64,000 nt of DNA from Candidatus Nealsonbacteria bacterium (GCA_047456295.1 CP179887.1:45944-109943); one strand, 5' to 3'; shown: positions 12,462 through 60,026, numbered from the stretch's first letter. Notes: generated by a model from the letters alone, not told the origin. A program made the numbers and translations.

Positions 12462-12499
12462 AAATCGCCTTTTAGGTGATTTTTTTGTAGAATAGGAAT
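12462..12499 (+). promoter_or_regulatory. repeat module A: hairpin + T-run + extended -10 + leaderless ATG
   Basis: aatcgcc-tttta-ggtgatt stem, ttttttGTAGAAT, aggaatATG. Confidence 0.5.
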
Positions 12500-13471
12500 A
12501 TGAAAATAATTAACCTCAAAAAGATTTTTTCAAGCATTCTGAAGCCGACTCCGCCTTATAATTTTAATGTAACAATCCATAAGCCGTCGCATTTCCCCTC
12601 GTCTGATAATGAATGGTCAAAAGGGAAATACTGGATAACAATGGTTTGGAGAGGCAAGTATCTGGGATTAAAATTGGAAAATAAGGGAACGGTAAAAAGA
12701 CCAAAGATAAGGTTTAGCGTATATTCAAAAAAGCCCCTATTAAAGTCATATAAGGATAGTTTAATGACAGAAATAGAATGGAGGTTTAATCTGAAGTCGG
12801 ATATTTCAGAATTTGCTAGAAAGTTCAAAAAAGATAAAATTTTAAAACCTTTATTAAAAAAATGGCAAGGAATGAAACCAGTAGCTGCTAATTCGTTATA
12901 TGAAACGCTTGTCATATATATTGTTTTACAGAATGCCGTAGTTCGTCGTTCGGTTCAGATGTTGGAGAATCTTTTTAATAAGTTTGGTAAGAAGGTGAGA
13001 TTTGACAACAAAACCCTTTCTACTTTTTGGGAGCCAAAAGCTATAAATAAAGTTTCAGAGCAAACATTAAGAGATTTAAAGTTAGGTTACAGAGCTAAAT
13101 TCTTAAAGAAAATCAGTTTACAGTTCGTCAAAGGAAAGATTGATGAATTTAAAATGAGAAAGATGGAGAGAGAAGAGTTAAAAAAGAAAGCATTAAAACT
13201 TTACGGAATTGGACCTGCTTCTGTAGAGTATCTTTTATTTGAGGATTTTTATCATTACAATGCCTTAGAAACTATTCCTCCCTGGGAACAGAAAATAATG
13301 TCTAAGTTGTTATTTAACAAGAAGTTAGTTTCTACTAAAAAAATCTTAAACTTCTTCAGAAAAAGATATTCAGGATGGGAGAAATTAGCCTTTCACTATA
13401 TCTGGGAAGATATCTTCTGGAAAAGAAAAACCCAGAAAATAGATTGGTTGGAAAAAGAAATCCGACTATAA
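12500..13471 (+). CDS. AlkA-like HhH-GPD DNA glycosylase
   Basis: HhH-GPD motif LYGIGPASVEYLLF near C-terminus; AlkA-N-like N-terminal domain. Confidence 0.65.
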   Translation: MKIINLKKIFSSILKPTPPYNFNVTIHKPSHFPSSDNEWSKGKYWITMVWRGKYLGLKLENKGTVKRPKIRFSVYSKKPLLKSYKDSLMTEIEWRFNLKSDISEFARKFKKDKILKPLLKKWQGMKPVAANSLYETLVIYIVLQNAVVRRSVQMLENLFNKFGKKVRFDNKTLSTFWEPKAINKVSEQTLRDLKLGYRAKFLKKISLQFVKGKIDEFKMRKMEREELKKKALKLYGIGPASVEYLLFEDFYHYNALETIPPWEQKIMSKLLFNKKLVSTKKILNFFRKRYSGWEKLAFHYIWEDIFWKRKTQKIDWLEKEIRL

Positions 13472-13508
13472 AATCGCCAAGCAGGCAGTTTCTTGGTAGG
13501 ATGGAAAT
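13470..13508 (+). promoter_or_regulatory. repeat module B (degenerate)
   Basis: aaatcgccaagcaggcagtttcttgGTAGGATggaaatATG. Confidence 0.4.
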
Positions 13509-13922
13509 ATGAAAAAAATCTTATTTGTCTATTTAGGTAATGTTGCCAGAAGCCAGATGGCTGAGGCATATTATAATCATTTTACAAATTCCAACAATGC
13601 AACAAGTGCTGGCATTTTAGATTTTACTCCAGTAAGATACGGTTATCCTATAAAAGAAGTTGTTCGGGCGATGAAAGAAGAAAGTATAGACGTATCCAAA
13701 AATAAAGTCAAAACCATAACAAGAGAGATGGTAAAAGAAAATGATAAGATTTTTGTTATGTGTAAGAAAGAAGAATGTCCTAACTTTCTATTGAATTCTG
13801 GTAAAGTTACTTTTTGGAATGTTGGTGACCCTTTTGATACAGATTTAGAAAATTTCAGAAGAATTAGGGATAAAATTAGGGGGAAAGTAGAACAACTGAT
13901 TACAGAAAAAAGAATTAATTAA
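13509..13922 (+). CDS. LMW-PTP/ArsC-fold protein with catalytic Cys replaced (predicted inactive)
   Basis: P-loop region ILFVYLGNVARSQMAEA aligns with CTGNICRS; both Cys replaced (Y, A), Arg retained. Confidence 0.6.
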   Translation: MKKILFVYLGNVARSQMAEAYYNHFTNSNNATSAGILDFTPVRYGYPIKEVVRAMKEESIDVSKNKVKTITREMVKENDKIFVMCKKEECPNFLLNSGKVTFWNVGDPFDTDLENFRRIRDKIRGKVEQLITEKRIN

Positions 13923-14191
13923 TATTTAATCATTCAATTATTGCGATACGCGGAAAATTATTCCAAAACCAAGTTTTAATTATATCCAACCATCCCCGCC
14001 AAATTGTAATTCAAAGAATCAAGGTTCTGAGGAGCGGTAGCGACGAATGGTTCTTATAAAATTGGATGTAATTAGATATAATTCGAGCTTTTTGTTCGGA
14101 TTTTTTTCACAAAATTACACAAAATTAGTTTGATATTTTTTTAAAATTTGTTACACTAAATTTAGGCCTCCTCGAATTTAGTGAAAATTTT

Positions 14192-14764
14192 ATGAAACAA
14201 AAAGAAGTATTATTTATTACGGGCAATAAAAGTAAATTAGCTGAGACAACTAAGATGGCTGAAAGATTCTCAGTAAAGATAGTAGGGCAAAAAGCTAATT
14301 TATTTGAGCCAATGGTATCCGATTCTACTAAAATCTTAATTGACAAAGCAAAGGATGCATATAAAAAGTTTGGTAAGCCTTTAATCGTTGATGATGCTGG
14401 TATTTACTTTGGAGCTTATCCTAATTTTCCTGGTGTATTCACGAAATTTATTATTAAGTTGCTTGGTTTTAATGGAATCATTAAGTTATTAGAAGGAAAA
14501 AGCAAAGACGCTTACTTCAAGTGCACAATTGGTTTTATTGACGAAAAGTTAGACCAGCCTCTTTTATTTGAAGGTATATCTAAGGGGAAAATAACCGAGA
14601 AAATTTCGATAAACTTCAATGGAAATTTCGAATTTAATAGTATTTTTATTCCTGAGGGAGAAAGTAAAACTTTTTCAGAAATGTCAATTGAGGAACGTAG
14701 TAAACACTGTCATAGAGATAGAGCGTTAGAGAAATTTTTAAGTTGGTATGTTAAAGAATATTAG
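14192..14764 (+). CDS. Ham1/RdgB-family non-canonical purine NTP pyrophosphatase
   Basis: FITGNKSKLAE N-terminal motif and C-terminal SKHCHRDRAL motif. Confidence 0.75.
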   Translation: MKQKEVLFITGNKSKLAETTKMAERFSVKIVGQKANLFEPMVSDSTKILIDKAKDAYKKFGKPLIVDDAGIYFGAYPNFPGVFTKFIIKLLGFNGIIKLLEGKSKDAYFKCTIGFIDEKLDQPLLFEGISKGKITEKISINFNGNFEFNSIFIPEGESKTFSEMSIEERSKHCHRDRALEKFLSWYVKEY

Positions 14765-14769
14765 TAAAA

Positions 14770-15396
14770 ATGAAATATATTAAAAAGGAAACAATTGGGG
14801 CGAGTTGGTTAAAAGCAGTAGAGGTGGTTATGGAAGAAGGAAACGATTTTTATGATCGCGATGTTAAGATAAAGGAGTTACTTGATCTTTTCATTGAGAT
14901 AAAAGATGCTCTTCTAATTGACGACGTGATAAAGAAACATGGAGATAAGTATATGATAGAACAACTAAAAATAGTTTTATTGGATACAAAACCAGGTGAG
15001 TGGGGGTGGAGTTATGGACAAAGGTTGTTTGGAGATAGTAACTATTTTAACCAAATAGAATTTATTGTAAATAAATTAAAGAGGAAACCGGAAACAAAAT
15101 CAGCTACCGTAACTTGTTTATTTCCTAAGGAGGATTTTCAGAAGGGAGCTCACATTCCATGTATTTGTCTTTTGGATTTTAAAATTAGAGATAATAGGTT
15201 GAACATGAGTGTTTGTTTAAGAAGCCAAGATATTGCTAAAAAGATGTATGGGGATGCGCTTGCTTTAGGTAAACTCATGGAAAAAGTAGCTAACGAATTA
15301 GATGTCTTGACGGGTAATCTTAAACTGTACATTATGTCGGCTCATATTTATGAAAACGAGTTTGAGAAAATGAGAAAAATAATAGGAAACTCTTAA
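14770..15396 (+). CDS. thymidylate-synthase-fold enzyme, short methanogen-type (paralog A)
   Basis: AHIPCICLLDF...LNMSVCLRSQD...SAHIYENEF: catalytic Cys and RSQD / HIYxN TS motifs; 208 aa. Confidence 0.7.
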   Translation: MKYIKKETIGASWLKAVEVVMEEGNDFYDRDVKIKELLDLFIEIKDALLIDDVIKKHGDKYMIEQLKIVLLDTKPGEWGWSYGQRLFGDSNYFNQIEFIVNKLKRKPETKSATVTCLFPKEDFQKGAHIPCICLLDFKIRDNRLNMSVCLRSQDIAKKMYGDALALGKLMEKVANELDVLTGNLKLYIMSAHIYENEFEKMRKIIGNS

Positions 15397-15582
15397 AATA
15401 AATAAATTCACCATAAACATTCTGATAGTGATAAGCTTACTATAATAAGTTTATTTTTTTTATTGTTGAGCAATCCTGAAATAATATGGGTCTTGATAAT
15501 TCAAAGAAATACTGTATTATATGAATAGCTATAAGATATATTTCCAATAGCAAAGTTCTTTATAACTTAAAAGAGGTGAAAT

Positions 15583-16152
15583 GAGATAAAAGTTATATAT
15601 GTAGGAGGAGTTAAGGGTGTTGGTAAAACCTTTGTCCTTCGTGAGGTCTTTAGGCAACTATCTTTAGAAAAAGTGCCTTTTAAGAAGGCAAAAGTTGCAA
15701 AAGTTATGTTTGATCTATTAAAAAGATACGGTATGGTTGAGAAGTATGATGAGTTAGAAAATATTAGTGTCGAAATAAAAGATTGTATTCGCAAAGAATC
15801 TTTCAAAAAAATACTGAAAGATAAAAATGAAAATTTGATTTTCGATGGCCATTATTCAATATCGTCACAGTTTGGTTATGAGTATGGAATTCCATTGAAT
15901 TTTATAAAAGAAATTGATCACTTAGTATTATTATATAACAATGAAGATGTTGTTCGCAGGAGAAGGTTAGAAGATAAATCTAAAAAAAGAGAGACAAGTT
16001 TAGAGAAAGTAATAATAGACTTAATAATAGAGGAAGCGTTTGCTGAGTTTTATGCGAGATTACGGGGTAGAAAGTTAAAGAAGATAGAAACTAATAATAA
16101 AGCCAGTGTCAGTTTAAAAGATTTTATAAAGGAGGTGTTTGAAAGTGGTTAG
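15583..16152 (+). CDS. P-loop nucleotide/nucleoside kinase-like protein (start uncertain)
   Basis: in-frame upstream extension encodes Walker A VIYVGGVKGVGKTF but has no ATG/GTG/TTG before it; ORF-track start 15673 is a GTG. Confidence 0.5.
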   Translation, partial: EIKVIYVGGVKGVGKTFVLREVFRQLSLEKVPFKKAKVAKVMFDLLKRYGMVEKYDELENISVEIKDCIRKESFKKILKDKNENLIFDGHYSISSQFGYEYGIPLNFIKEIDHLVLLYNNEDVVRRRRLEDKSKKRETSLEKVIIDLIIEEAFAEFYARLRGRKLKKIETNNKASVSLKDFIKEVFESG

Positions 16153-16789
16153 ATTAATAGAAGCAGATAATATTTCAGAAGCATGGTTAAAGGGATGTGA
16201 ATGTATTATAAATTACGGCTTTAGAACGAAAAGAAAAATCAAACTCCATAATTTGATTGCTGAGATTAAAAATATAACTCTAGATAAATACATAGATGAG
16301 CAATTTAGAAATTATATGAATCTAAGAATATTCAAGCGAACATTGGATATCGTTTCTTCAGATCAAAACCTCAATTCACATCCTAATTATTGGAGACGCT
16401 TGAAAGGAAAGGAAGAATTTAAGATAGACCAAGTGGCCCGCGTTATTTCCAGACTTAGAAAGCAGCCTCATTCAACCAAGCTTACCTTATGTATTTACAG
16501 CCCTAACGATTTCAAAAAGATGTATACACCTTGTATTTTATGTGCTGAATTAAGAGTGAATAAGAGGCGTCTTAATATGACCGCTTTTATCAGAAGTCAA
16601 GATTTCGCAAATAAAAGTTATGCTGATTATATAGGTTTATCATCTATTCTTAAACGAATTGGAGAGAATAGTAACATAAAACCAGGAGCAATTCTTACTC
16701 ATACTATAACCGCATTTATTGCCTATAAAGACCTAAGCCGAATGAAATCCTTTTTAAATATCATAAGGGAAAAGAAAATATCAAATTAG
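16139..16789 (+). CDS. thymidylate-synthase-fold enzyme (paralog B, divergent C-terminal motif)
   Basis: YTPCILCAELRVNKRRLNMTAFIRSQD; C-terminal THTITAFIAY replaces HIYEN. Confidence 0.65.
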   Translation: MKVVRLIEADNISEAWLKGCECIINYGFRTKRKIKLHNLIAEIKNITLDKYIDEQFRNYMNLRIFKRTLDIVSSDQNLNSHPNYWRRLKGKEEFKIDQVARVISRLRKQPHSTKLTLCIYSPNDFKKMYTPCILCAELRVNKRRLNMTAFIRSQDFANKSYADYIGLSSILKRIGENSNIKPGAILTHTITAFIAYKDLSRMKSFLNIIREKKISN

Positions 16790-16892
16790 TTATATGCACC
16801 AGCACCAGTTTATAATGTAAACTTATAAACTGGATTTTTTATATAAGCTAAGAAATACAATAGTACTTATATGAAGGAGAAAAAGACAATAA

Positions 16893-17105
16893 ATTCATCC
16901 AGGTTTTAGTTAAAGATTCAGACATAGGTTTGGACAGGAAAGACAAAAACAATCTTTTTAAGCTCTTCCATAGGGGAGAAAAAGCCACTTCTTTGTATCT
17001 TAACGGCTTAGGTTTAGGGCTCTTTATTGTTAAAAACCTGATCGAATTCCACAAGGGCGCGGTTAAAACTAAAAGCGAGGAGGGGAGAGAAGTACCTTTA
17101 TCATA
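16893..17105 (+). pseudogene. histidine kinase HATPase_c C-terminal fragment
   Basis: translation DSDIGLDRKDKNNLFKLFHRGEKATSLYLNGLGLGLFIVKNLIEFHKGAVKTKSEEG (G2 box GLGLGL) with no upstream HisKA in frame. Confidence 0.6.
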
Positions 17106-17189
17106 AAAATACCTTTCATGGTAGAGGTTTAAGAGGATAATCCTTCCAGAATTCATTTCTAACCATGCTTAACCATTCTCGTCACACTA

Positions 17190-17228
17190 AGTCGCATTTG
17201 AAGTGATTTTTTGATAGAATCGAAATAT
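17190..17228 (+). promoter_or_regulatory. repeat module C
   Basis: gtcgcatttgaagtgatttttTGATAGAATcgaaatATG; this ATG opens only a 15-codon ORF overlapping the rlmN start. Confidence 0.45.
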
Positions 17229-17254
17229 GAAAAAAGATTTAAGATTATCAAGAT

Positions 17255-18250
17255 ATGGATTTAGCTCTTCTTAAAAAAATTCTTGTAAAAGAACCATCTT
17301 TTCGTTTAAGGCAAGCGAAAAGAGCTATATTTAGAGACTTGATTGAAGATTGGTCAGGAGTTACAACCTTCCCTTTGTCTTTACGAGAAAAATTGAAAGA
17401 AAAATATCCTTTAAAAATTCAAGCTAAAACTTTTACCTCTAGAGACAAAAGAACAGTCAAAGCTGTTATTAATTTAAAAGACAATTTGAAAATTGAAACA
17501 GTTTTAATGCGCCATAAGAATAAGAGAAATACTGTTTGTGTTTCATCTCAGGTTGGCTGTGCTTTAGGTTGTATCTTTTGTGCTACTGGAAAGGCTGGTT
17601 TCAAAAGAAATCTTGAGGCTTTTGAAATTGTAGAACAGGTTTTATTTTTTGCTCGTTATTTAAAAAAAGAGAAACAAAAGATTACCAATATTGTCTTTAT
17701 GGGAATGGGAGAACCTTTTTTAAATTATGATAGTGTTTTGAACGCTATTAAAGTCCTAAACGATAAAGAAGGATTTAATTTGGGAGCAAGACGATTTTCA
17801 ATCTCTACTGTAGGAATTATAGAGGGTATTAAAAAATTGGCTGAAGAAAAACTTGAAGTGAATTTGGCAATTTCTCTTCATGCACCTGATGATACCCTGC
17901 GTTCAAAAATTATACCAATTAATAGAAAATATCCTCTTTCAAAAGTTTTAAAAGCAGTTGATGAGTATATTAAAAAGACTCGGCGTAGAGTAATGTTTGA
18001 ATACATAATGATAAAAGGATTAAATGATTCAGATGAGTATGCGAAAAAATTAGCAGAATTAATGAAGAAAAGAGAGCTTTCTTTTGTGAACCTTATTTCT
18101 TACAATCCCACAGGAATTTTTAAACCCTCTCTGAGTACAAGAATAAAAAAATTCAAAGATATTTTAGAAAAAGCAGGAATAGCCGTTACTCAGAGATATC
18201 GTTTTGGACAAGATATTAAGGGGGCTTGTGGTCAGCTAGCAGCTAAATAA
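17255..18250 (+). CDS. rlmN: 23S rRNA/tRNA m2A radical-SAM methyltransferase
   Basis: CVSSQVGCALGCIFCATG radical SAM motif, 331 aa. Confidence 0.85.
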   Translation: MDLALLKKILVKEPSFRLRQAKRAIFRDLIEDWSGVTTFPLSLREKLKEKYPLKIQAKTFTSRDKRTVKAVINLKDNLKIETVLMRHKNKRNTVCVSSQVGCALGCIFCATGKAGFKRNLEAFEIVEQVLFFARYLKKEKQKITNIVFMGMGEPFLNYDSVLNAIKVLNDKEGFNLGARRFSISTVGIIEGIKKLAEEKLEVNLAISLHAPDDTLRSKIIPINRKYPLSKVLKAVDEYIKKTRRRVMFEYIMIKGLNDSDEYAKKLAELMKKRELSFVNLISYNPTGIFKPSLSTRIKKFKDILEKAGIAVTQRYRFGQDIKGACGQLAAK

Positions 18251-18715
18251 GTTTATTAATTAAAGATCAGATTAACCAATAAAAAAATCAAAAATCTGAC
18301 CAAGAGATATAGAGATAACTAATACTGCTAATTTTAGTCTTTCTGAAGAGTTTTTTTCTTAAGACCATAAGACAGTTTTTGTTTAGGTGGCTGACTTCAT
18401 CGTCCATCCGTTATTATAAGTAATTTATCAGGTTTTTTTCAAAATCCACCTAACTAAAATTCTAAAATCGTTTCGTAGTCCCCGAATACCACTGCCCAGC
18501 GGGGACATTTTTGTTTTAAGTTGTTGAATAATTCTCCCAAAACCAATTTCCAATACATTTAATTCTCTCTCTTTTCGTAAGTTAAAGTTGGTTTTGGTAG
18601 GTGGGGACCTTAAAAATACCAAATAATGGGTATTTTTCATCTTAATTTATTATTTTTTATTCACACCCTTGAGCTTGATTTTACCTTAATTTTAAGCTAA
18701 AATGAATATGAGATT

Positions 18716-19768
18716 ATGGCAAAAATTGACCTGAAAACCATCAAGAATAAGGCTGGAAAAGAGATTAAAAAGAGCCAGACCTTAAAGGAATTGGATAGGG
18801 TTTTTAAGAGATATCTGGGAAAAAAAGGGGATCTTTCCTGGATTTTGCGTTCTTTAAACAAGATGCCAAAAACAAAAAGGATAAAGATGGGGAAAAAGGC
18901 AAATCAGCTTAAAGAGTTTTTAGAAGAAGCGATTGCCAAAAAGAGTGGGGAAATCAGAAAAAAAACAAAGAAATCATTAGAGGGGACAGAATGGTTTGAC
19001 ATTACCATTCCTGGAAAGAAACCTGTTTCCGGTCACTTACATCCTTTAACCCAGGCAAAGAAAAAAGCCGAAGAGATTTTTCAATCAATGGGTTTTTCAA
19101 TAGCTGAAGGTCCAGAACTTGAAAGTGAATGGTATAACTTTGATGCCTTAAACTTTCCCTCAGAACATCCAGCTAGAGAGATGCAGGATACCTTGTTTAT
19201 AAAACAAAAGAATAGAGAAAGATTACCTAGTACAGCTAAGCTTTTAATGAGAACTCACACTTCTCCGGTTCAGATTCGTTATATCAAAGAAAATCAGCCT
19301 CCTCTAAGAATTATTATTCCAGGCAGGGTCTTTAGACATGAAGCCACCGATGTTTCCCATGAGATTAATTTCTATCACGTGGAAGGGTTGATGGTTGATA
19401 AGAAAATCTCGGTAGCAAATTTTAAAGCCATAATAAAGGAGTTTTTAAAAAGATTCTTTGAAAAAGAGCTTAAGATTCGTCTCCGTCCCAGTTATTTTCC
19501 TTTTACCGAACCTTCTTTTGAGATTGACTTTTCCTGCCCCATGTGTGGAGGAAAAGGATGTTCTATTTGTAAAAAAAGAGGGTGGTTGGAGATTATGGGA
19601 GCAGGAATGGTTCATCCTAATGTGTTTAAGAATGCTGGTTTGAACCCTAAAAACTGGCAGGGTTTTGCCTTTGGAATGGGATTAGACAGATTAACAATGA
19701 TGAAATACAAAATAAGCGATATTAGATTATTTTACGGAGGGGACTTGAGATTTTTAATCCAATTCTAA
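18716..19768 (+). CDS. pheS: phenylalanyl-tRNA synthetase alpha subunit
   Basis: FRHEATDVSHEINFYHVEG class II core. Confidence 0.9.
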   Translation: MAKIDLKTIKNKAGKEIKKSQTLKELDRVFKRYLGKKGDLSWILRSLNKMPKTKRIKMGKKANQLKEFLEEAIAKKSGEIRKKTKKSLEGTEWFDITIPGKKPVSGHLHPLTQAKKKAEEIFQSMGFSIAEGPELESEWYNFDALNFPSEHPAREMQDTLFIKQKNRERLPSTAKLLMRTHTSPVQIRYIKENQPPLRIIIPGRVFRHEATDVSHEINFYHVEGLMVDKKISVANFKAIIKEFLKRFFEKELKIRLRPSYFPFTEPSFEIDFSCPMCGGKGCSICKKRGWLEIMGAGMVHPNVFKNAGLNPKNWQGFAFGMGLDRLTMMKYKISDIRLFYGGDLRFLIQF

Positions 19769-19777
19769 TTCATTAAC

Positions 19778-48426: not shown

Positions 48427-48427
48427 T

Positions 48428-50965: not shown

Positions 50966-50982
50966 TAAAGTATTAAAAATAT

Positions 50983-51227: not shown

Positions 51228-51301
51228 GGGGGTGTAGTGAAGTGGTATCATTGGAATCTCCAAAATTCCAGTCGGGGGTTCGATTCCCTCCGCCCCTGCC
51301 A
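51228..51301 (+). tRNA. tRNA-Trp (CCA), 3' CCA encoded
   Basis: anticodon stem GGAAT/ATTCC with loop CTCCAAA; T-arm GGGGG-TTCGATT-CCCTC. Confidence 0.75.
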
Positions 51302-51307
51302 AAGATT

Positions 51308-51634: not shown

Positions 51635-51690
51635 AGGCTCCTCAATATCAAACGTGTATGTAAAATACACGTTTTTTTATTTTAATAAAT

Positions 51691-53313: not shown

Positions 53314-54027
53314 ATGTCAAACCCAATAGTTAAATTAGAAAATGTTTGGAAAGTTTATCAGTTAGGCAAGGTTGAATTAACAGCTTTAAAAGGAGTAAGC
53401 CTCGATGTGAGTCGAGGTGCTTTTGTAAGTATTATGGGTACTTCAGGTTCTGGTAAATCAACTCTTTTAAACATGATAGGATGTTTAGATACTCCAACTA
53501 AAGGTAAAGTTTTTTTAAAGGGAAAAGATGTTTCAAAACTAACAGAAGATCAATTGTCTCAATTAAGGGGGAAAATCATTGGCTTTGTATTTCAGGAATT
53601 TAATTTAATGCCTCATTTAACAGCTCTTGAGAATGTAATGCTGCCCATGGTTTTTCAAGGTATATCACTAAAACAAAGAAAAGAAAAAGCAAAAGCACTT
53701 TTAGTGTCTGTAGGTTTAGAAAAAAGAATTTCCCATCAGCCAGCTGAACTTTCAGGTGGTGAAAGACAGAGAGTAGCTATAGCCAGAGCTTTTGCTAATG
53801 ATCCAGAACTTGTTATTGCTGATGAGCCAACAGGTAATTTAGATTCAATTACTGGTAAAAAGATAATGGATCTTTTAAAGAAATTCCATCAAAAACAAGA
53901 AAAAACCATTATTGTTGTGACCCATGATCCTAATATTGCTGGTTACAGTAAGAATATTTTTAATATTAAAGATGGTGAAATTATTGTTAATCATCAAAAA
54001 GCATCTAAAGTATTATGGGAGAAATAA
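53314..54027 (+). CDS. ABC transporter ATP-binding protein (MacB/LolD type)
   Basis: [12 protein letters not shown] Walker [16 protein letters not shown] signature, Walker [11 protein letters not shown]. Confidence 0.9.
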
Positions 54028-55238
54028 AAGAATATATTTATATTGGTATTAGAAATCTTAAGACCAGATCTTTAAGAAGTTGGTTAACTATTTTTGGTAT
54101 TGTTATCGGAGTTTTTTTAATCATTAGTTTGCTTTCTTTGTCTGAAGGCATTAAAAATAGTATTACTCAACAATTAAGATCTTTGGGAGGAGAAATGGTT
54201 TTTGTTATACCTGGTGATGTTTCCAATCCTTTTATGGCTATGATGGGAAGTGAAAAATTAGAAAAAGAAGATATAGATATTATTAAAAAAACAAAAGGAG
54301 TAGATCGAGTGCTTACTACCTCATACACAAGCACTATTATGAGGCATGAAGATGAAAGCAAGCAAATTCTTTTAATGGGTGTTGCCTGGGAAGATAGAGA
54401 TGTTTTAGAAAACTATCAGGGTTGGAATTTAGCTGAAGGACAATGGCCTGTTGCTGGCAAAAGAGAAGTTGTAATTGGTCAACAAGTAGCTCATGAAATA
54501 TTTGAAAGAGAGATTGAAGTTGATTCAGAGGCAGTAATTAAAGGCAGAACTTTCAAAATAGTTGGTGTTTTAAATTCTTTAGGAAGCAGAATGGATGATA
54601 GCGGTGTTTATATAGACATACCAATTTATCAGGGTTTAACTGGAGAAAAAAGAGGAAGTGCTCAAATGGCAATGGTTAAAATTGAAGAAGGTGCTCCTCT
54701 AGATGAAACAGCTGATAATATTAGGGAGAATTTACAAAAAACAAGAAAAAGAAGAGCTGGAACTGATGAAGCTGACTTTAGCGTTATTACTTCAGATACC
54801 ATCGGTGATATTGCAGGTAACATATTAGCTGTTATTCAATTAGCCATCATGGCTTTCGCTAGTATTGCTATTATTGTTGGAGGTATTGGAATAATGAATA
54901 CAATGTTTACTTCAGTTAGAGAAAGAACTAAAGAAATAGGGGTTATGAAAGCTGTAGGCGCTAAAAATTCAGCAGTATTATCTATTTTCCTAACTGAAGC
55001 TGCAGTTATTGGTTTGATTGGTGGAATAGGAGGAACATTTTTAGGTGCTATTTTTGCAAAGTTTATTGAGCTTTATGGGCAGCTTCACCCCATGTTTTAT
55101 TTTAAAGCCTCTGTAAGTCCTGAATTAGTTATTTTTGGCTTGTTTTTTTCTTTTTTAGTTGGTTGTTTGTCAGGATTTTTTCCAGCTAGAAAAGCAGCTA
55201 GCTTGAAACCAGTTGAGGCCCTGAGAAGACTTGAATAA
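54015..55238 (+). CDS. ABC transporter permease, FtsX/MacB-like
   Basis: N-terminal TM, large periplasmic domain, C-terminal 3-TM FtsX fold. Confidence 0.8.
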   Translation: MGEIKEYIYIGIRNLKTRSLRSWLTIFGIVIGVFLIISLLSLSEGIKNSITQQLRSLGGEMVFVIPGDVSNPFMAMMGSEKLEKEDIDIIKKTKGVDRVLTTSYTSTIMRHEDESKQILLMGVAWEDRDVLENYQGWNLAEGQWPVAGKREVVIGQQVAHEIFEREIEVDSEAVIKGRTFKIVGVLNSLGSRMDDSGVYIDIPIYQGLTGEKRGSAQMAMVKIEEGAPLDETADNIRENLQKTRKRRAGTDEADFSVITSDTIGDIAGNILAVIQLAIMAFASIAIIVGGIGIMNTMFTSVRERTKEIGVMKAVGAKNSAVLSIFLTEAAVIGLIGGIGGTFLGAIFAKFIELYGQLHPMFYFKASVSPELVIFGLFFSFLVGCLSGFFPARKAASLKPVEALRRLE

Positions 55239-55291
55239 AGTGTTTAATGTATTATAAAATAAAAAAAGGATTAATTTAAATCTTTAAAATT

Positions 55292-55594
55292 ATGACTTAT
55301 TTAATATTAGGTGCAGGTTTTTTAGGAGGAGTAGTGAGGGGATTAATGGGATTCGTAAAACACCAGTTTTCATATAAAAACGTGCCTTTTAAATTAGGGT
55401 ATTTTTTAACAATGGTTTTTCTGTCTGGCGTGATCGGGTTTTTATCAGTTTGTGCAGTTAAAAATACTGGTTTTACCTTAGAGGGAGTGTTTAGTCCAGC
55501 TTTAAGTTTTATTGTAGGTTATGCAGGAGGTGATTTTATAGAGAATATTTATAAAATCATTATTAAAAAATCATCATTGTATTCTGAAAAATAA
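55292..55594 (+). CDS. small membrane protein
   Basis: 3 predicted TM helices. Confidence 0.4.
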   Translation: MTYLILGAGFLGGVVRGLMGFVKHQFSYKNVPFKLGYFLTMVFLSGVIGFLSVCAVKNTGFTLEGVFSPALSFIVGYAGGDFIENIYKIIIKKSSLYSEK

Positions 55595-55610
55595 TTGCTT
55601 TTTAGCTTTA

Positions 55611-56048
55611 TTATTTTTCCTCTGTCCACTTTTTTGCCTTTTCCACAGTAGGAAATAATTCTACTTCTATTGATGGTTTGTTTAACTTTAAGAAAAACGA
55701 ACCAATTATTCTTGCCATTGGATTTTTATAAACTAACGCAACTTTTTTTCTAACATGTTTCGCAATCTCTGGACTTTCATTAACAAATCTTCTTGCTTCC
55801 AGACTTACTTTTTCTATCTCTGAAATATCTACAATTATTCCTCGTCTTTGGAGATTCTTCGTTATTTTAATTCCTGCTTCAGTTATTCGTTCTACTTCTT
55901 CTTTGTCTATTTTCCCCCACATTCTTATCATCATTATATTGTCTTCAATCCAAGTTTCGCTACTCCTTGTTTTAATTGATTCTTTTTTCATATTTTTATA
56001 AATCCGTTTGACTGTTTTCATTTCGACATCTTTAATAACGACAAACAA
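55611..56048 (-). CDS. hypothetical protein (possibly STAS-like)
   Basis: ORF only; weak alpha/beta pattern. Confidence 0.35.
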   Translation of the reverse strand: MFVVIKDVEMKTVKRIYKNMKKESIKTRSSETWIEDNIMMIRMWGKIDKEEVERITEAGIKITKNLQRRGIIVDISEIEKVSLEARRFVNESPEIAKHVRKKVALVYKNPMARIIGSFFLKLNKPSIEVELFPTVEKAKKWTEEK

Positions 56049-56118
56049 TTAATTTTAAAAAATCTTCCTTTTAAAGAAAGGAAAAGTTCGAGTCCTACTA
56101 CCGGAGCAAATTAAGTTC

Positions 56119-56160
56119 AAAAATCGCCAATCAGGCGGTTTTTTGATAAAATGAACTATA
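56119..56160 (+). promoter_or_regulatory. repeat module D
   Basis: aatcgcc-aatca-ggcggtt hairpin, ttttTGATAAAAT, gaactataATG. Confidence 0.5.
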
Positions 56161-56577
56161 ATGACAAGAAGAATTGCTATTTTTGCCCCTTCTGGAGTTG
56201 GTAAATCAACACTAATTAAGATTGCCTTAAAACAAGGGATAAAGGCTTATGATTTTGAAGATTTCTCTTCTCAAGAAAGAATAAAAAAAGCTCAAGAAAT
56301 TCTCAAGAAGGATTTTAATGACATTGTATTGTTTAATGCGGGAGATTTACAAACTAAAGATTTCCCGTTTGATGTTGAACTGGTATTGCTTTTACCTCCT
56401 AAAGATATTTATTTGAAGCGTTTAAAAAAGCGCGACAAATTAAATCCAGAGAAAAAAGGCCAACAAGGGAATATGAAGTATGAGATATTTTTTTAAAAAA
56501 AGAACATTTTTCATAGAATTATTAAAGATACAGGAACAGCGGATGAAATTTTAGATAAGATATTAAAAAGTTTATGA
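56161..56577 (+). pseudogene. P-loop kinase paralog interrupted by in-frame TAA at codon 112
   Basis: collinear with 57269..57685 over 138 codons; TAA at 56494..56496 aligns with the Ser of TST in the paralog; downstream in-frame RIIKDTGTADEILDKILKSL matches the paralog C-terminus. Confidence 0.7.
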
Positions 56578-57044
56578 ACATAAAAGTTTTTATTGAGAAT
56601 AAAGCAGGGTCTAATCAAAAAAATATCTATGATGAAAAAACCTTGCAATATAAGAAAACTGTAATAATCTCAAGGAAATATCCATATCCCTATGGTTTCG
56701 TTTTGAATACCACAAGTGGGGATGGTGATAATGTAGATTGTTTTGTGTTAACAAACAAAAAACTTAAAACTGGTGAAATCGTTGAGTGTAAACCTATTGC
56801 CATGATGGAGCAAATAGAGTCTTATTCTGCAGAGCCAGGAATAGAGGAAGAAGACCACAATGTCTTAGCTGTTTTAGAGGGTGAAAGTTTTGAAATAGAC
56901 GATATATTAAAGAATAAACTGTCTGAATTTGTTTCACATGCCTTTGACCATTTACCAGATAAAAAAGTTAAAGTAGGAAATTTCTTAGATGAAAAAAAGA
57001 CTATAGAGTATATAGAAAAATGTAGAGATGCTATTAATCTTTAA
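56574..57044 (+). CDS. family I inorganic pyrophosphatase-like protein
   Basis: KYPYPYGFVLNTTSGDGDNVDCFVL resembles the PPase DGDPLDVLV core. Confidence 0.65.
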   Translation: MNIKVFIENKAGSNQKNIYDEKTLQYKKTVIISRKYPYPYGFVLNTTSGDGDNVDCFVLTNKKLKTGEIVECKPIAMMEQIESYSAEPGIEEEDHNVLAVLEGESFEIDDILKNKLSEFVSHAFDHLPDKKVKVGNFLDEKKTIEYIEKCRDAINL

Positions 57045-57232
57045 ATTCAGGTTCGAACATTATCCTATTAAATTAGGTTAATCCTTGAAATAGTCTTTAA
57101 ATCTCTAAGCTTTTTCTCAATTTCTATCCAATCAATAGTTCTAAATTGGTAAATTTTCCCAAAACCAAGTTCTAATATTGTACCACCCCCGGAGCAGGCT
57201 AGTGCTCGGTTCAAGTGACCGAGACGCATCAA

Positions 57233-57268
57233 ATCGCCTTATAGGCGGTTTTTTGGTAAAATCGAAAT
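57233..57268 (+). promoter_or_regulatory. repeat module E
   Basis: aatcgcc-ttata-ggcggtt hairpin, tttttTGGTAAAAT, cgaaatATG. Confidence 0.5.
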
Positions 57269-57685
57269 ATGAAAAGAAGAATTGCCATCTTTGGTCCTCC
57301 TGGTGTTGGTAAGTCAACCCTAATTAAGCTCGCTATAAAAAGAGGAATAAAGGCCTTTGATTTCGAAGATTTTCCTGAGGAAGAAACATTAAGGCGAGTC
57401 AAAGAAATCTTCAAAAAAGTTCCTGATGACATTGTATTGTATGGTGCGGCTGGCTTACAGACTTATGATTTCCCACAGGATGTAGAACTGGTGTTGGTTC
57501 TGCCACCTAAAGATATTTATTTAGAGCGTATAAAGGAGCGGGATACAGTAAATCCAGCTAAAGTAGGCCAGAACCATTTGGAATGGTATGATGGCTATAC
57601 AAGTACTAAGAATCGTTATCATAAAGTTATTAGTGAGACAGGAAGTCCCAATGAAGTTTTAGATAAAATATTAGAAGATTTATGA
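57269..57685 (+). CDS. small P-loop kinase-like protein
   Basis: IAIFGPPGVGKSTLIKL Walker A; 138 aa. Confidence 0.65.
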   Translation: MKRRIAIFGPPGVGKSTLIKLAIKRGIKAFDFEDFPEEETLRRVKEIFKKVPDDIVLYGAAGLQTYDFPQDVELVLVLPPKDIYLERIKERDTVNPAKVGQNHLEWYDGYTSTKNRYHKVISETGSPNEVLDKILEDL

Positions 57686-58653
57686 AAAGTGTTACCCCAT
57701 CAAAACTTAGAAAAGGAGATGAGATAAGAGTCATAGCTCCTGCTAAAAGTTTCAAGACCTCCTTCACAGAAGAGAGAATGGCAACCGCAATGAAAAGGTT
57801 TGAAGAAATGGGTCTGAAAGTTAGTTTTGGAAAACATGTCTACGAACGGAATGAATTTGAATCCACAACTATTGAACATCGACTAGAAGATTTACATGAT
57901 GCTTTTTCAGACAACAACGTAAAAGGGATTTTAACTGTTCTTGGAGGTACCCATTCCAATCAGCTTTTGAAGTATATAGATTACGACCTCATCAGTAATA
58001 ATCCTAAAATCTTATGCGGACTATCGGACATCACTTCCTTGGCAAATGCAATACATGCTAAAACAGGACTGGTGACATATTCTGGACCACACTTCACGTT
58101 GTTTGGTGTAAATAAAGCAATTGACTATACTGTCGATTATTTTAAGCAATGTTTTTTTACAAACGAATCAATAGACGTACAAGCTTCGGAGCATTTTTGT
58201 AATGATAGATGGGACAGTGAAGAAATTCCAAACGATGGAATGTGGCTCATCAATCGTGGTGAAGCTCAAGGAAAAGTTCTCGGCGGTAATATGGTCACTT
58301 TCAATCTTCTGCAAGGGAGTGAATACTTTCCTGATATCTCTGATTCAATCATCTTTGTGGAAGACAACGCAAAAGAAAGTATTCGCGCCTTTGAAAATCA
58401 CTTACAATCACTTATCAACCAACCAAATTTTTCCAAAGTGATAGGGTTAGTAATTGGCAGGTTTCAAGAAGGTACTGGAATGACAAAAAAGTTACTTACA
58501 CAAATCGTTCAAACAAAAAAAGAATTTAACAATTTACCTGTTATTGCAAATGTGGATTTTGGACATACAATCCCAATGATTACTTTCCCCATCGGAGGCG
58601 AATGCAAAATTGCAGCAAAGGACGATCCTAGGATTAAGATAACCAAACACTAA
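57682..58653 (+). CDS. S66-family LD-carboxypeptidase (LdcA/MccF-like)
   Basis: GLSDITSL nucleophile-Ser motif; 323 aa. Confidence 0.7.
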   Translation: MKSVTPSKLRKGDEIRVIAPAKSFKTSFTEERMATAMKRFEEMGLKVSFGKHVYERNEFESTTIEHRLEDLHDAFSDNNVKGILTVLGGTHSNQLLKYIDYDLISNNPKILCGLSDITSLANAIHAKTGLVTYSGPHFTLFGVNKAIDYTVDYFKQCFFTNESIDVQASEHFCNDRWDSEEIPNDGMWLINRGEAQGKVLGGNMVTFNLLQGSEYFPDISDSIIFVEDNAKESIRAFENHLQSLINQPNFSKVIGLVIGRFQEGTGMTKKLLTQIVQTKKEFNNLPVIANVDFGHTIPMITFPIGGECKIAAKDDPRIKITKH

Positions 58654-58930
58654 TTATGGACAAAATGAAACAAGAAAGCACGGTCAATTTGATTATATAA
58701 AAAGCATTGGATGCTACCTAGACAGTGTGTGAACCGACATCAATATCCTTGTATAGTTCAAGAACGCGTACCGATGCAGCAAGCGGAAGCGATTGAAATT
58801 TTAAAGACTATTTTATCTAAAGACCATTAAAACAGGTTCTAACCTCGTCCAGCCCCCGGAGTCAGCTTGTGCTCGGTTCGAGGGACCGAGACACTTTCGG
58901 TTCGAATCCTAACCCCACAGATGGTAAAAT

Positions 58931-58961
58931 CAAGCTTGAAAGAAGCTTGCTTTTTTATTAA
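58931..58961 (+). terminator. intrinsic terminator
   Basis: caagctt-gaaag-aagcttg followed by CTTTTTT. Confidence 0.6.
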
Positions 58962-58989
58962 ATTTAGGGAAAGGTTAAAATAGTGACTT

Positions 58990-59925
58990 ATGGAGATAAA
59001 AAACACAAAACCATCTTTTCGTTGTGTGTTACATGGAAGTTTCCGCAAATACTGGGATTTAATTAAAAGAACACATCGTATCTTTACTGAAGCCGGTATA
59101 GAAGTTTTGGCGCCTCGTGAAACAGAAATAACTTCTTCTACAGAAGGCTTCGCATTTTTAGAAGGTGAAGAAGATAAAGACCCTCGGATGGTTGAGTTGC
59201 TATATCTGCATAATCTTAAACGATTAGGGGAAAACGGTTTTAGTTATTTTGTAGATCCAGAAGGATACATAGGCAAAAGTGCATCTTATGAACTTGGCAT
59301 TGCACAAGTTACAAATATAAGGTGCTTCTTCTTCGATACCCCAAGGGACCACCCAGCTTATATTCATAGAAATGCTATTTGGAAACCTGAAAACCTCACT
59401 ACATTTATACGAGAGAAAGGAAGATTACCTGAGCCTCAAGTAGAGCCGGACAAACAAAAGATTCATAAGCTTTGGGAAGATTTAATGGTACCTGGTTCTG
59501 TAGTAGCTGCGGGAGGCATTATTGAGTATGACTCTGATAAAAAAGAGAAAGAAATTCTTTTAGTAAAGACTCATAAGTGGAAAGGACGATATTCGATTGT
59601 GGGGGGTAAGCTTCGCAGAAATGAAAGACTTGAAGATGCTTTACTTAGAGAAGTTAAAGAAGAAACAGGATTGGTAGGAAGGGTTGGAGAACATCTTTGC
59701 ACTTTTGACCAGATAAAAAACTCTGGTTATTACTTGCCTGGAATACAACATATTTTTGTTGATAATGTAGTTCATGTTAGAAGTAAACACGTTCGTTTGA
59801 ATGAAGAAGCAGAAGATTATATTTGGATACCAGCACGAATTGCGCTTCGTGAACTTTCAATAGAACCAAATGCTCGTCATACACTTCAATTATATGCTGA
59901 CAGCTTTTCTGTGTTAAGTAACTGA
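58990..59925 (+). CDS. fusion: nucleoside 2-deoxyribosyltransferase-like N-domain + Nudix hydrolase C-domain
   Basis: Nudix box GGKLRRNERLEDALLREVKEETGL; N-terminal flavodoxin-like NDT-type region (VLAP...SYELGIA). Confidence 0.6.
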   Translation: MEIKNTKPSFRCVLHGSFRKYWDLIKRTHRIFTEAGIEVLAPRETEITSSTEGFAFLEGEEDKDPRMVELLYLHNLKRLGENGFSYFVDPEGYIGKSASYELGIAQVTNIRCFFFDTPRDHPAYIHRNAIWKPENLTTFIREKGRLPEPQVEPDKQKIHKLWEDLMVPGSVVAAGGIIEYDSDKKEKEILLVKTHKWKGRYSIVGGKLRRNERLEDALLREVKEETGLVGRVGEHLCTFDQIKNSGYYLPGIQHIFVDNVVHVRSKHVRLNEEAEDYIWIPARIALRELSIEPNARHTLQLYADSFSVLSN

Positions 59926-59962
59926 TTTATAAGACAGGTTCTAAAATCGTTCGTCCTTCGGA

Positions 59963-60026
59963 GCTAAAAAATCGCTAAATAGGCGATTTTTTGATAAAAT
60001 AAACAATATAAGTAAAAAATATTAAT
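59963..60026 (+). promoter_or_regulatory. repeat module F
   Basis: aaatcgc-taaatag-gcgattt perfect 7-bp stem, tttTGATAAAAT, then 26 nt to ATG. Confidence 0.5.

Follow-up and report, generated by a model that had tools for sequence, protein, structure and literature searches.

Six accessory genes in a 64,000-nucleotide stretch of DNA from Candidatus Nealsonbacteria (hereafter the window) are each preceded by a module of about 40 bases. What does this module do, and how did it come to stand in front of such genes? The earlier note on this DNA had read it as a hairpin terminator fused to a promoter and a start codon. All six copies are present where that note had placed them, on the + strand, and follow the consensus aaAATCGCC-N5-GGCG(A/G)TTTTTTG(A/G)TA(A/G)AAT-N6-ATG. 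They are composed as follows.

Module 1, 12460..12502, + strand: A-run; T-run 12480-12486; -10 TAGAAT 12488-12493; ATG 12500 of an HhH-GPD (AlkA-like) gene.
Module 1 stem, + strand: ATCGCC 12464-12469 with GGTGAT 12475-12480; one G·U; -11.2 kcal/mol, z -5.8.
Module 2, degenerate, 13470..13511, + strand: TTTCTT; TGG; -10 TAGGAT 13497-13502; ATG 13509 of a Cys-less LMW-PTP gene.
Module 2 stem, + strand: 13473-13478 with 13484-13489; C-A mismatch; -4.6 kcal/mol.
Module 3, degenerate, 17190..17229, + strand: T-run; TGA; -10 TAGAAT 17215-17220; ATG 17227.
Module 3 stem, + strand: GTCGC 17191-17195 with GTGAT 17203-17207; -4.7 kcal/mol.
Module 4, 56119..56163, + strand: T-run; TGA; -10 TAAAAT 56147-56152; ATG 56161, 8 nt past the -10, of a 111-aa P-loop protein.
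Module 4 stem, + strand: 56123-56128 with 56134-56139; -11.5 kcal/mol.
Module 5, 57230..57271, + strand: T-run; TGG; -10 TAAAAT 57257-57262; ATG 57269 of a 138-aa P-loop paralog.
Module 5 stem, + strand: 57233-57238 with 57244-57249; -10.1 kcal/mol.
Module 6, 59966..60029, + strand: T-run; TGA; -10 TAAAAT 59995-60000; pcm ATG 60027 (26-nt leader).
Module 6 stem, + strand: ATCGCT 59971-59976 with GGCGAT 59982-59987; -10.4 kcal/mol.

An HMM built from the six copies recovered only these six in the window (E 2e-15 to 4e-10); the next match on the + strand (E 0.024) was an unrelated terminator. A strict hairpin pattern matched twice in the window versus never in 100 shuffles, and the exact sequence TTTTTGRTARAAT occurs at four sites, all four of them modules. 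Two copies, those at 13470 and 17190, are degenerate: the former has a mismatched stem, a broken T-run and an altered -10, and in the latter pairing is limited to TCGC/GTGA, with G·U pairs. The gene before Module 2 ends in a stop codon (13469-13471) that directly adjoins the stem.

The genes behind the modules are, in this genome, single accessory genes or short operons. The gene at 12500 gives a weak HhH-GPD match below the Pfam cut-off, and the LMW-PTP encoded at 13509 has its catalytic Cys replaced (VYLGNVARS). A 15-codon ORF begins at ATG 17227 and overlaps a radical-SAM RlmN-like gene at its start (17255), the two P-loop paralogs behind Modules 4 and 5 are 66% identical, and the gene at 60027 is PCMT (pcm). 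That these genes are accessory, as had been proposed, is borne out by their location in two strain-variable islands.

Variable island 1, 11936..18485, no strand assigned: modules 1-3; GC 0.30-0.33; between an intact tRNA-Asp (11860-11935) and pheS (18716).
Variable island 2, 55596..60021, no strand assigned: modules 4-6; low GC; a 4.4-kb insertion, with Module 6 at its right edge.

In a relative, the locus of island 1 accommodates GatA, a 171-aa gene, a LAGLIDADG gene and pheS in about 1.2 kb. The content of island 2 varies as well: it is missing from the 95%-identical relative GCA_030665965.1, in which 78 nt separate the 100-aa gene from pcm. All six modules fall within 11 kb of island DNA in the 64-kb window, and no copy was found in about 91 kb of related core loci. 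In this genome, the module is limited to two horizontally variable islands.

The motif is clearly conserved in relatives, contrary to the lack of conservation that the earlier note had named as refuting. An exact match is seen at least 135 times, spread over 120 genome stretches that are nearly all Patescibacteria MAGs, versus once in 2.9 million viral contigs. A sequence of almost this form is present in more than 100 genomes of the ultra-small Patescibacteria (CPR) and across many CPR classes, where it mostly sits in variable, horizontally acquired regions; it is a building block that many Patescibacteria genomes have in common. None of the Rfam 15 covariance models matched the module, and only tRNAs exceeded the gathering score; the sole non-tRNA match (STnc420, searched with E up to 10) was dismissed as a chance terminator-like resemblance. 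No description of the module was found in the literature searched. For comparison, 174 related modules were used for the upstream tRNA analysis, and sets of 49, 123, 132, 133 or 135 elsewhere. Against these more than 170 copies, the junction reading held up element by element.

We then considered the hairpin. In four of the six window copies the folding energy is about -10 to -11.5 kcal/mol (z -3.9 to -5.8), with 6 to 7 T after the stem, while the hairpins at 13470 and 17190 are weak; the minus strand folds less stably than the plus strand in five of six. The 132 related copies have a GC-rich stem-loop and T-run too, preceded by an A-run (A at position -1 in 80%). At the base following GGCG, 129 of these copies can pair with the fixed T (71 by G and 58 by A), whereas three have T and none has C. 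The free sixth stem base is C in all but seven copies (125), of which six have T and one has A. Among 49 copies that were not chosen by their stem sequence, stem pairs comprised 241 Watson-Crick, 47 G·U, 4 A·C and 2 other. Unrelated but compensated stems occupy the same site in some copies (CCCGAGA/TCTCGGG, ACCTC/GAGGT, ATCCGC/GCGGAT and ATAGCC/GGCTGT). By these substitution patterns, the predicted hairpin is kept paired at the RNA level and on the gene strand only; the G·T tolerance would also fit a hairpin of single-stranded DNA.

The surroundings of the module point in the same direction. In 115 of 123 cases the first ORF on the upstream side runs in the same direction (median gap, 89 nt), and an intact, co-oriented tRNA lies directly upstream in 16 of 135 copies. 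Within the window, only the copies at 13470, 57233 and 59963 are clearly at the 3' end of a co-directional unit; at 12462, 17190 and 56119 the feature closest upstream is a gene fragment or reads the other way, which leaves the hairpin nothing obvious to terminate. The proposal that hairpin and T-run make up an intrinsic terminator is thus supported by gene-strand pairing, by the A-run and by location after co-directional genes and tRNAs, and the element probably behaves as the 3' end of the upstream transcript.

A plain terminator needs no conserved stem sequence. However, ATCGCC or a one-base variant of it is found in 46 of the 49 copies not chosen by stem sequence, the loop measures 5 nt in 132 of 135 copies, and other terminators of the same genomes have different stems. 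The nearly fixed stem and loop must therefore be under some further constraint beyond that on a plain terminator. An alternative reading involves a dimeric transcription factor for which ATCGCC-N5-GGCGAT, at -36 to -20, would be the operator in a stress/repair regulon (glycosylase, pcm, Nudix, Ham1 and others). Such an operator would account for a 17-bp dyad at constant distance from the -10, for conserved half-sites with a spacer fixed at 5 nt, and for the several repair or house-cleaning enzymes encoded in the window. We nevertheless regard it as extremely unlikely: the asymmetry of the dyad is of the RNA-pairing kind (G for A in 71 of 132 copies; 47 G·U versus 4 A·C), unrelated stems can replace it, and it is bordered by A- and T-runs. 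Furthermore, 30 sampled downstream loci had no common theme; their genes are functionally unrelated, which argues against a regulon.

Directly after the hairpin comes the putative promoter. The extended -10 claimed for every copy (TG at -15/-14 and a TAnnnT hexamer, within TGnTAnAAT) is found in five of the six window copies but not at 12462, where TG is displaced by one base and is not a canonical TGn. Since TG and hexamer were fixed by the search patterns in the genome and metagenome scans, copies recovered there are no independent test of the promoter. At 17-bp spacing, TCGCC and the first loop base form a hexamer that matches TTGACA at 4 of 6 positions if that base is A, as in 83 of 132 copies versus a background of 32%; this match is lost in the alternative stems.

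The expected distance of about 6 nt between -10 and ATG is seen in four of the six window copies (12500, 13509, 17227 and 57269), compared to 8 nt at 56161 and 26 nt in pcm; in Module 6 the aligned start codon is ATA and the copy is not leaderless. Among 133 related copies, ATG lies 6, 7, 8 or 9 nt past the -10 in 35, 14, 12 and 4, respectively, versus about 2 per offset elsewhere. Overall, 65 of the 133 related copies and five of the six window copies have an ATG at 6 to 9 nt, and 59 of the 65 phased ATGs begin ORFs of at least 50 aa. The base immediately before ATG is T in 50 of 63 cases; in related copies TTG replaces ATG once and GTG never does. The N termini so defined fit their protein families (Walker A at residues 9-16, PTP loop at 7-15). 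Shine-Dalgarno sequences are nearly absent in this genome (5 of 64 genes), and their absence here is therefore no evidence for leaderless starts. The excess of ATG at 6 to 9 nt, the preceding T and the near absence of GTG and TTG do, however, fit leaderless transcripts that would start at the A of ATG, in agreement with the proposed start at or next to that codon. Transcription start site data exist for Nanosynbacter lyticus (PMC12641261, Table 1).

This phasing also bears on whether the module could be a short interspersed repeat, selfish or neutral and akin to REP, MITE or Correia elements, in which the promoter- and terminator-like sequences are incidental. Like such repeats it is short, intergenic, hairpin-forming, multi-copy and clustered, and its stem sequence is conserved. 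However, the exact start-codon phase and the T/A preference at -1/+1 show selection for expression. The module is always oriented as its downstream gene, with a co-directional gene before it in 115 of 123 cases; apart from the hairpin, neither terminal inverted repeats nor target duplications are present, and the distribution over many CPR classes is not that of lineage-specific repeats. A repeat of this kind is very unlikely.

Taken together, we consider it likely that the module is a junction, combining terminator, extended -10 and leaderless start, that travels with flexible genes. On the gene strand, an RNA hairpin AAAAUCGCC-loop-GGCG(A/G)UUUUUU would end the transcript coming from upstream, which may belong to a gene or to a tRNA. 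Its T-run would also lead straight into an extended -10 promoter, TTTG-N-TA-N-AAT, from which transcription would begin 6 to 9 nt further, at the A of ATG, giving a leaderless mRNA. The near identity of the stem across distant lineages may be due to joint constraints (a stable GC stem, a fixed 5-nt loop, fixed -10 spacing and possibly a weak -35 mimic, TCGCCA) and to spread with a shared flexible gene pool.

Both islands also hold scars of large serine recombinases directed to tRNA-Asp or tRNA-Asn. These lie next to modules, had not been noticed in the earlier note, and are listed here.

12344..12457, - strand: recombinase-tail scar, 37-codon frame (..WRGRRDYFRTLEW..); its first part reads antisense to a copy of the tRNA-Asp 3' end.
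13968..14003, + strand: pseudo-tRNA-Asp-like end (GTTTTAATTATATCCAACCATCCCCGCCA), after the LMW-PTP gene.
18428..18485, - strand: scar on the right of island 1; tail ..NDFRILVRWILKKT*; pseudo-tRNA-Asp end TTCTAAAATCGTTTCGTAGTCCCCG; not followed by a module.
56085..56108, + strand: tRNA-Asn 3' half (GTTCGAGTCCTACTACCGGAGCA) that lacks its 5' counterpart; Module 4 follows after 11 nt.
57071..57232, - strand: recombinase-tail scar, ..FRTIDWIEIEKKL..*, directly upstream of Module 5.
59937..59964, + strand: pseudo-tRNA-Asn 3' end of the recombinase-gene type (GGTTCTAAAATCGTTCGTCCTTCGGAGC; antisense ..NDFRT), directly upstream of Module 6.

The copy of the tRNA-Asp 3' end spans 12426-12454 and stops 7 nt before Module 1; it has 16 nt identical to 11919-11934 and a 5-nt insertion in the T-loop. 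After the scar at 57071..57232, the + strand carries a tRNA-Asn-like acceptor end (ccacccccggagc) and a trailer hairpin, the one found after intact tRNA-Asn genes in relatives. The tRNA-Asn half before Module 4 resembles a related locus with tRNA-Asn and module (L009). Pseudo-tRNA ends correspond to the antisense of the 3' end of serine recombinase genes of about 500 aa, and at L249 such an ORF ends inside tRNA-Asn. A fragment of 97 aa (P0262) is homologous to the C-terminal part (residues about 420-500) of proteins that are 499-519 aa long and carry Resolvase, Recombinase and Zn_ribbon_recom domains, all three. A search of the window with serine recombinases found tail fragments only (57110-57145 and 12416-12454) and no recombinase body, nor was there a recombinase among the 20 window proteins scanned.

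These scars raise the question of whether the modules move. A large serine recombinase acting in trans might have inserted circles of module, cargo gene, recombinase-tail remnant and pseudo-tRNA end serially at genes for tRNA-Asp, Asn or Gln. The recombination site would then include the module, or else about 10 nt just ahead of it. This reading is compatible with the terminator/promoter function, to which it adds a mechanism of mobility. A tRNA or tRNA-derived sequence lies at most 80 nt upstream of 47 of 174 modules, compared to 2% of random 80-mers, although in about 73% none is detectable. Arrays of tRNA, then spacer, module, gene and optional pseudo-tRNA, then again spacer, module and gene, occur at four related loci (L112, L073, L066 and L009). 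Homology to recombinase genes, whose 3' ends supply the pseudo-tRNA ends in antisense, always ends at the tRNA discriminator/CCA, with the module 7 to 11 nt later. Island 1 is flanked by tRNA-Asp and a tail scar, with more scars within. Island 2 is an insertion polymorphism, but no intact tRNA-Asn adjoins it and divergence extends into its left flank (53.3-55.6 kb), suggesting import by homologous recombination. The window also lacks a recombinase body, and there is a simpler account, in which modules normally sit downstream of tRNA genes and are left at the far junction when an element integrates. We therefore see serial insertion in trans as possible but doubtful.

The cassette system suggested by the earlier note stands as an architecture, with arrays of single genes each behind a module, but not as a demonstrated mechanism of mobility; mobility of module and gene as a cassette is plausible. 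Rather unlikely is an integron-like cassette system of Patescibacteria that is built differently, each gene carrying a terminator/leaderless-promoter module and a pseudo-tRNA attachment site and being stacked at tRNA-Asp/Asn/Gln genes by a trans-acting recombinase. If this were true, each attachment site would go back to the 3' terminus of a gene for a large serine recombinase, and the conserved module would ensure that its gene is expressed in every CPR host and might form part of the recombination site.

How does this arrangement compare with known systems? Integrases with attP inside their own gene are known from SSV1-type elements of archaea and from phage Mx8, and integrase-less elements (CIMEs) accrete in tandem at tRNA genes. 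As with SSV1 and Mx8, the recombinase gene crosses the attachment site, and integration swaps the C-terminal tail and leaves the old one at the far junction; as with CIMEs, repeated scars lie downstream of one tRNA. However, the enzyme here is a large serine recombinase and not a tyrosine integrase, and the segments between scars are one to a few genes without recombinase bodies.

Integron cassettes are promoterless, and their attC sites (57-141 bp) have R and L boxes (R''-L''...L'-R') read by the tyrosine integrase IntI. The arrays of single, unrelated accessory genes, the short hairpin-forming separators and the strain-variable content are similar. An attC architecture was nevertheless rejected: the junction consists of a 17-bp dyad, T-run and -10, every unit has its own promoter, the hairpin is a terminator-like stem of 6 to 7 bp, and the sole recombinase trace here is that of a tRNA-directed large serine recombinase. 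With the Correia elements of Neisseria, REP/BIME and ERIC, the module shares the form of a short, repeated intergenic hairpin able to supply promoters or terminators. Unlike them, it has no terminal inverted repeats or target-site duplication, its orientation and start-codon phase are fixed, and it is found in distant lineages instead of one genus.

Extended -10 (TGn) promoters drive leaderless mRNAs in Actinobacteria, Deinococcus-Thermus, Mycoplasma and archaea. The module resembles these in its TG one base before TAnAAT, the apparent lack of a good -35, the ATG 6 to 9 nt on, the pyrimidine at -1 and A at +1, and the strict use of ATG. It differs in that a terminator hairpin is fused to it and fills the -35/spacer region, and in being a repeated, near-identical unit, not a set of independently evolved promoters. 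Finally, the module is similar to intrinsic (Rho-independent, often bidirectional) terminators: a GC-rich stem-loop with 6 to 7 T directly after it and a complementary A-run before it follows co-directional genes and tRNAs, and pairing is kept via G·U. Unlike in such terminators, its stem sequence and 5-nt loop are nearly fixed over a whole superphylum, and its T-run doubles as the upstream part of a promoter.

The six window copies of the module, a ~40-nt unit of hairpin, T-run, extended -10 and ATG, were aligned on the -10 hexamer, and the elements that the earlier note had described were present at all six sites.

Window copies of the module, aligned on the -10 hexamer (position, sequence; all on the + strand)
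12462: AAATCGCC-TTTTA-GGTGATTTTTTTG-TAGAAT-AGGAAT-ATG
13470: AAATCGCC-AAGCA-GGCAGTTTCTTGG-TAGGAT-GGAAAT-ATG
17190: AAGTCGCA-TTTGA-AGTGATTTTTTGA-TAGAAT-CGAAAT-ATG
56119: AAATCGCC-AATCA-GGCGGTTTTTTGA-TAAAAT-GAACTATA-ATG
57233: AAATCGCC-TTATA-GGCGGTTTTTTGG-TAAAAT-CGAAAT-ATG
59963: AAATCGCT-AAATA-GGCGATTTTTTGA-TAAAAT-AAACAATATAAG...

A profile built from these copies matched only the same six sites in a scan of the 64 kb, and the strict hairpin pattern gave 0 matches among 100 shuffles. All four exact TTTTTGRTARAAT sites in the window are modules. Predicted folding energies were -10 to -11.5 kcal/mol for four copies, while 13470 and 17190 fold weakly. The gene assignments behind the modules were borne out as well. 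At 17227-17274, the predicted leaderless ATG of module 3 (17190) opens a 15-codon ORF overlapping, in another frame, the ATG (17255) of the radical-SAM RlmN-like gene, which could reflect a frameshifted start or translational coupling. Just upstream of this module, 16848-17156(-)/16930-17106(+) is probably a gene fragment; its plus-strand frame (LGLGLFIVKNLIEFHKG..) resembles by eye a histidine kinase's C-terminal ATPase region.

A 596-Gb genome collection was then searched with the pattern ATCGC-N5-7-GGCG-N-TTTTTTG-N-TA-N-AAT, for which we estimate ~1 chance match in 596 Gb from its 21 fixed bases. At least 135 matches were found in at least 120 stretches, mostly from Patescibacteria, showing that the module is conserved in relatives rather than confined to the sites of the earlier note. 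Among the matches listed, 117 of the 120 stretches were uncultured MAGs by record title, mostly labeled as Patescibacteria or its groups (Nealson-, Staskawicz-, Portnoy-, Komeili-, Moran-, Doudna-, Buchanan- and Wildermuthbacteria, Paceibacterota, Nanosyncoccus); the remaining three, from Streptococcus and Haemophilus isolates, look like chance matches. The closest relatives of the window proteins were in Nealsonbacteria-type genomes. The viral collection (2.9 million contigs) contained one match, and a phage origin of the module was rejected on this ground. No Rfam family matched, leaving no known RNA family as its identity, and no description was found in the literature searched. A DNA-uptake sequence was ruled out by density, strict intergenic position, and single orientation.

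The free positions of the pattern bear on whether the hairpin acts as RNA, as DNA, or as a protein site. In the listed genome copies, the base after GGCG was G in 71, A in 58, T in 3, and C in none, and either of the two common bases can pair with the fixed T across the stem; at the sixth stem position, which faces a fixed G, there was C in 125 and T in 6. Because these bases pair with their fixed partners, the free positions behave as RNA pairing predicts. Against circularity, we assembled copies selected on the promoter half only, taken from metagenomes scanned for TTTTTTGRTARAAT-N6-ATG and from the secondary copies of the genome loci. The in-register hairpin in 49 such copies comprised 241 Watson-Crick, 47 G·U, 4 A·C, and 2 other pairs. 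An operator bound as a duplex would be expected to show deviations in both directions at equal rates; the module does not, which argues against an operator. Furthermore, some loci carried wholly different yet complementary stems at the same position. The listed copies have an A-run upstream of the stem, their upstream ORF was co-directional in 115 of 123 cases (median gap, 89 nt), and an intact tRNA lay directly upstream in 16 cases. The G·U-tolerant pairing, the A-run, and the position after co-directional ORFs and tRNAs uphold the terminator reading, and we conclude from these comparative data that the hairpin and T-run would serve as the signal at which the upstream transcript has its 3' end.

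The same asymmetry, together with the gene content, argues against an SOS/LexA or other operator, and no SOS/LexA-type motif of Patescibacteria was found in the literature searched. The 30 sampled downstream genes included Nudix, HAD, cupin, TspO, RhuM, M23, transglutaminase-like, LeuRS, and DEAD helicase genes, 10 had no Pfam match, and the GyrB gene in the sample stems from the Haemophilus chance match (L092). Given this diversity, it is unlikely that a regulon explains the module.

Ordinary terminators need no fixed stem. ATCGCC or a one-base variant was present in 46 of 49 copies not selected on the stem, and the loop was 5 nt long in 132 of 135 listed copies. A crude scan of the same loci, which under-counts module stems, returned 255 hairpin-plus-T-run sites without a -10 outside the CGCC/GGCG stem pattern; of the 29 sites without a -10 that fitted this pattern, most were modules read on the reverse strand or copies whose -10 has decayed. 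With a spacer of 17 bp, the -35 position would comprise TCGCC and the loop base next to it, an A in 63% of listed copies. The resulting TCGCCA, which matches TTGACA at 4 of 6 positions, may act as a -35 mimic and so account for the conserved stem, although alternative stems do not keep it.

Among 133 listed copies, an ATG followed TAnAAT at offsets 6, 7, 8, and 9 in 35, 14, 12, and 4 cases, respectively, with about 2 at each other offset, and 59 of the ATGs at offsets 6 to 9 begin ORFs of 50 aa or more. T directly precedes the ATG in 50 of 63 cases, and replacement by GTG or TTG almost never occurs. Initiation at the start codon and leaderless translation are known to be marked by a pyrimidine at -1, A at +1, and strict dependence on AUG. 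If the module ATGs of the window are the true starts, its P-loop and PTP-loop motifs lie at the expected places. The proposed leaderless promoter is thus favored by comparative evidence, namely the offset peak, the T at -1, and the near absence of GTG/TTG. Across the whole window, only 5 of 64 long ORFs had a Shine-Dalgarno-like motif, and promoters outside the modules, for instance a perfect TTGACA-17-TGATATAAT-6-ATG at 11989-12026, also abut starts. Leaderless starts may therefore be common in this organism and not special to the module; what is special to it is the fusion of a leaderless promoter with a hairpin. The remnant of ~400 bp that separates tRNA-Asp from the first recombinase scar holds this TTGACA promoter and the 67-aa ORF behind it (together 11989-12227). 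Several core genes have a TAnnnT hexamer 5 to 9 nt before the ATG, e.g., 46264 and 2064 on the minus strand.

We also compared the surroundings of the modules with related genomes. GCA_030665965.1 is 95% identical to the window over 46.9-51.2 kb and 60.0-64.0 kb, and island 2 (modules 4 to 6) is absent from it. Since its 100-aa gene leads straight to pcm, 55596-60021 is a 4.4-kb insertion, which contains modules 4 to 6, the P-loop paralogs, PPase, LD-carboxypeptidase, and Nudix genes. The adjacent 53314-55575 (ABC-transporter genes and the 100-aa gene) is ~66% identical to this relative between flanks of 92 to 95%, which suggests that it may have been imported together with the island. GatA, the 171-aa gene, and pheS lie ~1.2 kb apart in a complete Nealsonbacteria genome; in the window, 6.8 kb containing modules 1 to 3 (island 1) separates tRNA-Asp from pheS. 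GC is lower in both islands, 91 kb of related core loci held no module, and arrays of modules with one or two genes between them occur elsewhere (L066, L073, L065, L110). Taken as a description, "accessory gene cassettes" is therefore correct. When the loci compared were searched for homologues of the cargo genes that carry the module in different surroundings, few matches were obtained.

Island 1 also holds, at 14192-16789, a row of genes for a Ham1-type NTP pyrophosphatase, two diverged thymidylate-synthase-like paralogs, and an AAA_17 kinase, resembling phage nucleotide-modification gene sets. In the complete Nealsonbacteria CP179891.1, a LAGLIDADG endonuclease gene (L245:9058-9738) lies between the 171-aa gene and pheS, a site corresponding to the tRNA cluster and island 1 of the window. 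Group I introns in Patescibacteria tRNA-Asp/Asn have been reported (PMC13011429); an intron-containing tRNA-Asn of this type was dismissed after no group I intron match was obtained in 55.9-60.1 kb.

A tRNA-related sequence lay within 80 nt upstream of 47 of 174 modules, versus 2% of controls. Part of these are real tRNAs; the others resemble tRNA 3' ends with a 5-nt T-loop insertion, and their opposite strand encodes a conserved tail, ..LPLLDAFRTIDWxxIKEEL..*. Differences between loci in this frame are synonymous, and such third-position differences between L029 and L108 indicate that the pseudo-tRNA ends are coding. A reading of them as decayed tRNAs was thus revised: read in antisense, they correspond to the 3' ends of recombinase genes. 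"LE(L/I)GFG" frames, once taken as methyltransferase remnants, belong to the same scar family. A 97-aa fragment (P0262) matches the last ~90 residues of 499- to 519-aa proteins with Resolvase, Recombinase, and Zn-ribbon domains, and an intact 504-aa recombinase gene (L249:6001-7548; tail WLPGLDSNQRPSG) ends antisense within tRNA-Asn. The tail homology and this gene end place the attachment site in the 3' end of the recombinase gene. Judged by sequence, the short frames ending in ..FRT(I/L)(D/E)W..* are C-terminal tails left behind by large serine recombinases that target tRNA genes. On integration, the recombinase would acquire a tRNA-encoded tail, and the old tail with its pseudo-tRNA end would be stranded at the far junction.

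Putative recombinase scars in the window (strand where assigned)
12344-12457, minus strand, tRNA-Asp type, 16 nt identical to the tRNA-Asp end
13968-14003, tRNA-Asp type
about 17165-17189, tRNA-Asp type
18428-18485, minus strand, tRNA-Asp type
56085-56108, tRNA-Asn type
about 57071-57197, minus strand, tRNA-Asn type
58834-58862, tRNA-Asn type
59937-59964, tRNA-Asn type

A search with serine recombinases found no recombinase body in the window. That modules are the usual downstream neighbors of tRNA genes, left beside the far junction after integration, fits these data. They also fit a model in which cassettes without a recombinase, each made up of a module, its cargo, and a pseudo-tRNA site, are added one upon another at tRNAs by an enzyme acting in trans. 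This model would explain why recombinase homology always stops at the discriminator/CCA, 7 to 11 nt ahead of the module, and why no recombinase bodies are seen in arrays; however, a scar is absent from most modules, and we consider such cassettes rather improbable.

In many CPR genomes, tRNA-Asn and the module are separated by a conserved hairpin (AGGCTAGTGCTCGGTTCGAGTGACCGAGACGCAT) whose loop is T-arm-like (window 57195-57230 and 58860-58897; L116:7611-7647, L094, L010, L110, L119, L212), with compensatory stem changes CTTTCG/CGAAAG in L119. The 337 nt without ORFs ahead of the Nudix gene (58653-58990) contain a pseudo-tRNA-Asn end, the trailer hairpin, and a further tRNA-like 3' end (GGTTCGAATCCTAACCCCACA), followed by TGGTAAAAT and a CAAGCTT/AAGCTTG terminator. 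ARAGORN and Rfam found no tmRNA or odd tRNA there or in 57044-57233.

Overall, the finding of the earlier note is real, and comparative evidence supports its functional reading of the module as a dual terminator/extended -10/leaderless-start junction, a unit that appears to be shared across the Patescibacteria and associated with flexible DNA. A large part of bacterial diversity belongs to the CPR; nearly all of these bacteria are uncultured, and to our knowledge the regulation of their genes is essentially unmapped. With a 40-nt unit recognizable by eye, the boundaries of transcripts and the true leaderless starts could be located in thousands of MAGs, improving annotation, and the unit would serve as a portable promoter/terminator for emerging CPR genetics. 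Its confinement to strain-variable islands beside tRNA serine-recombinase scars would offer a concrete handle on accessory-gene exchange in tiny genomes. Because the terminator T-run is also the upstream half of the promoter, one may ask whether polymerase released there is re-used at the overlapping promoter. Bidirectional terminators likewise have an A-run ahead of the stem, a feature that the module shares. What appears to be undescribed is the fixed, portable combination and its distribution; the parts themselves are known kinds of signal.
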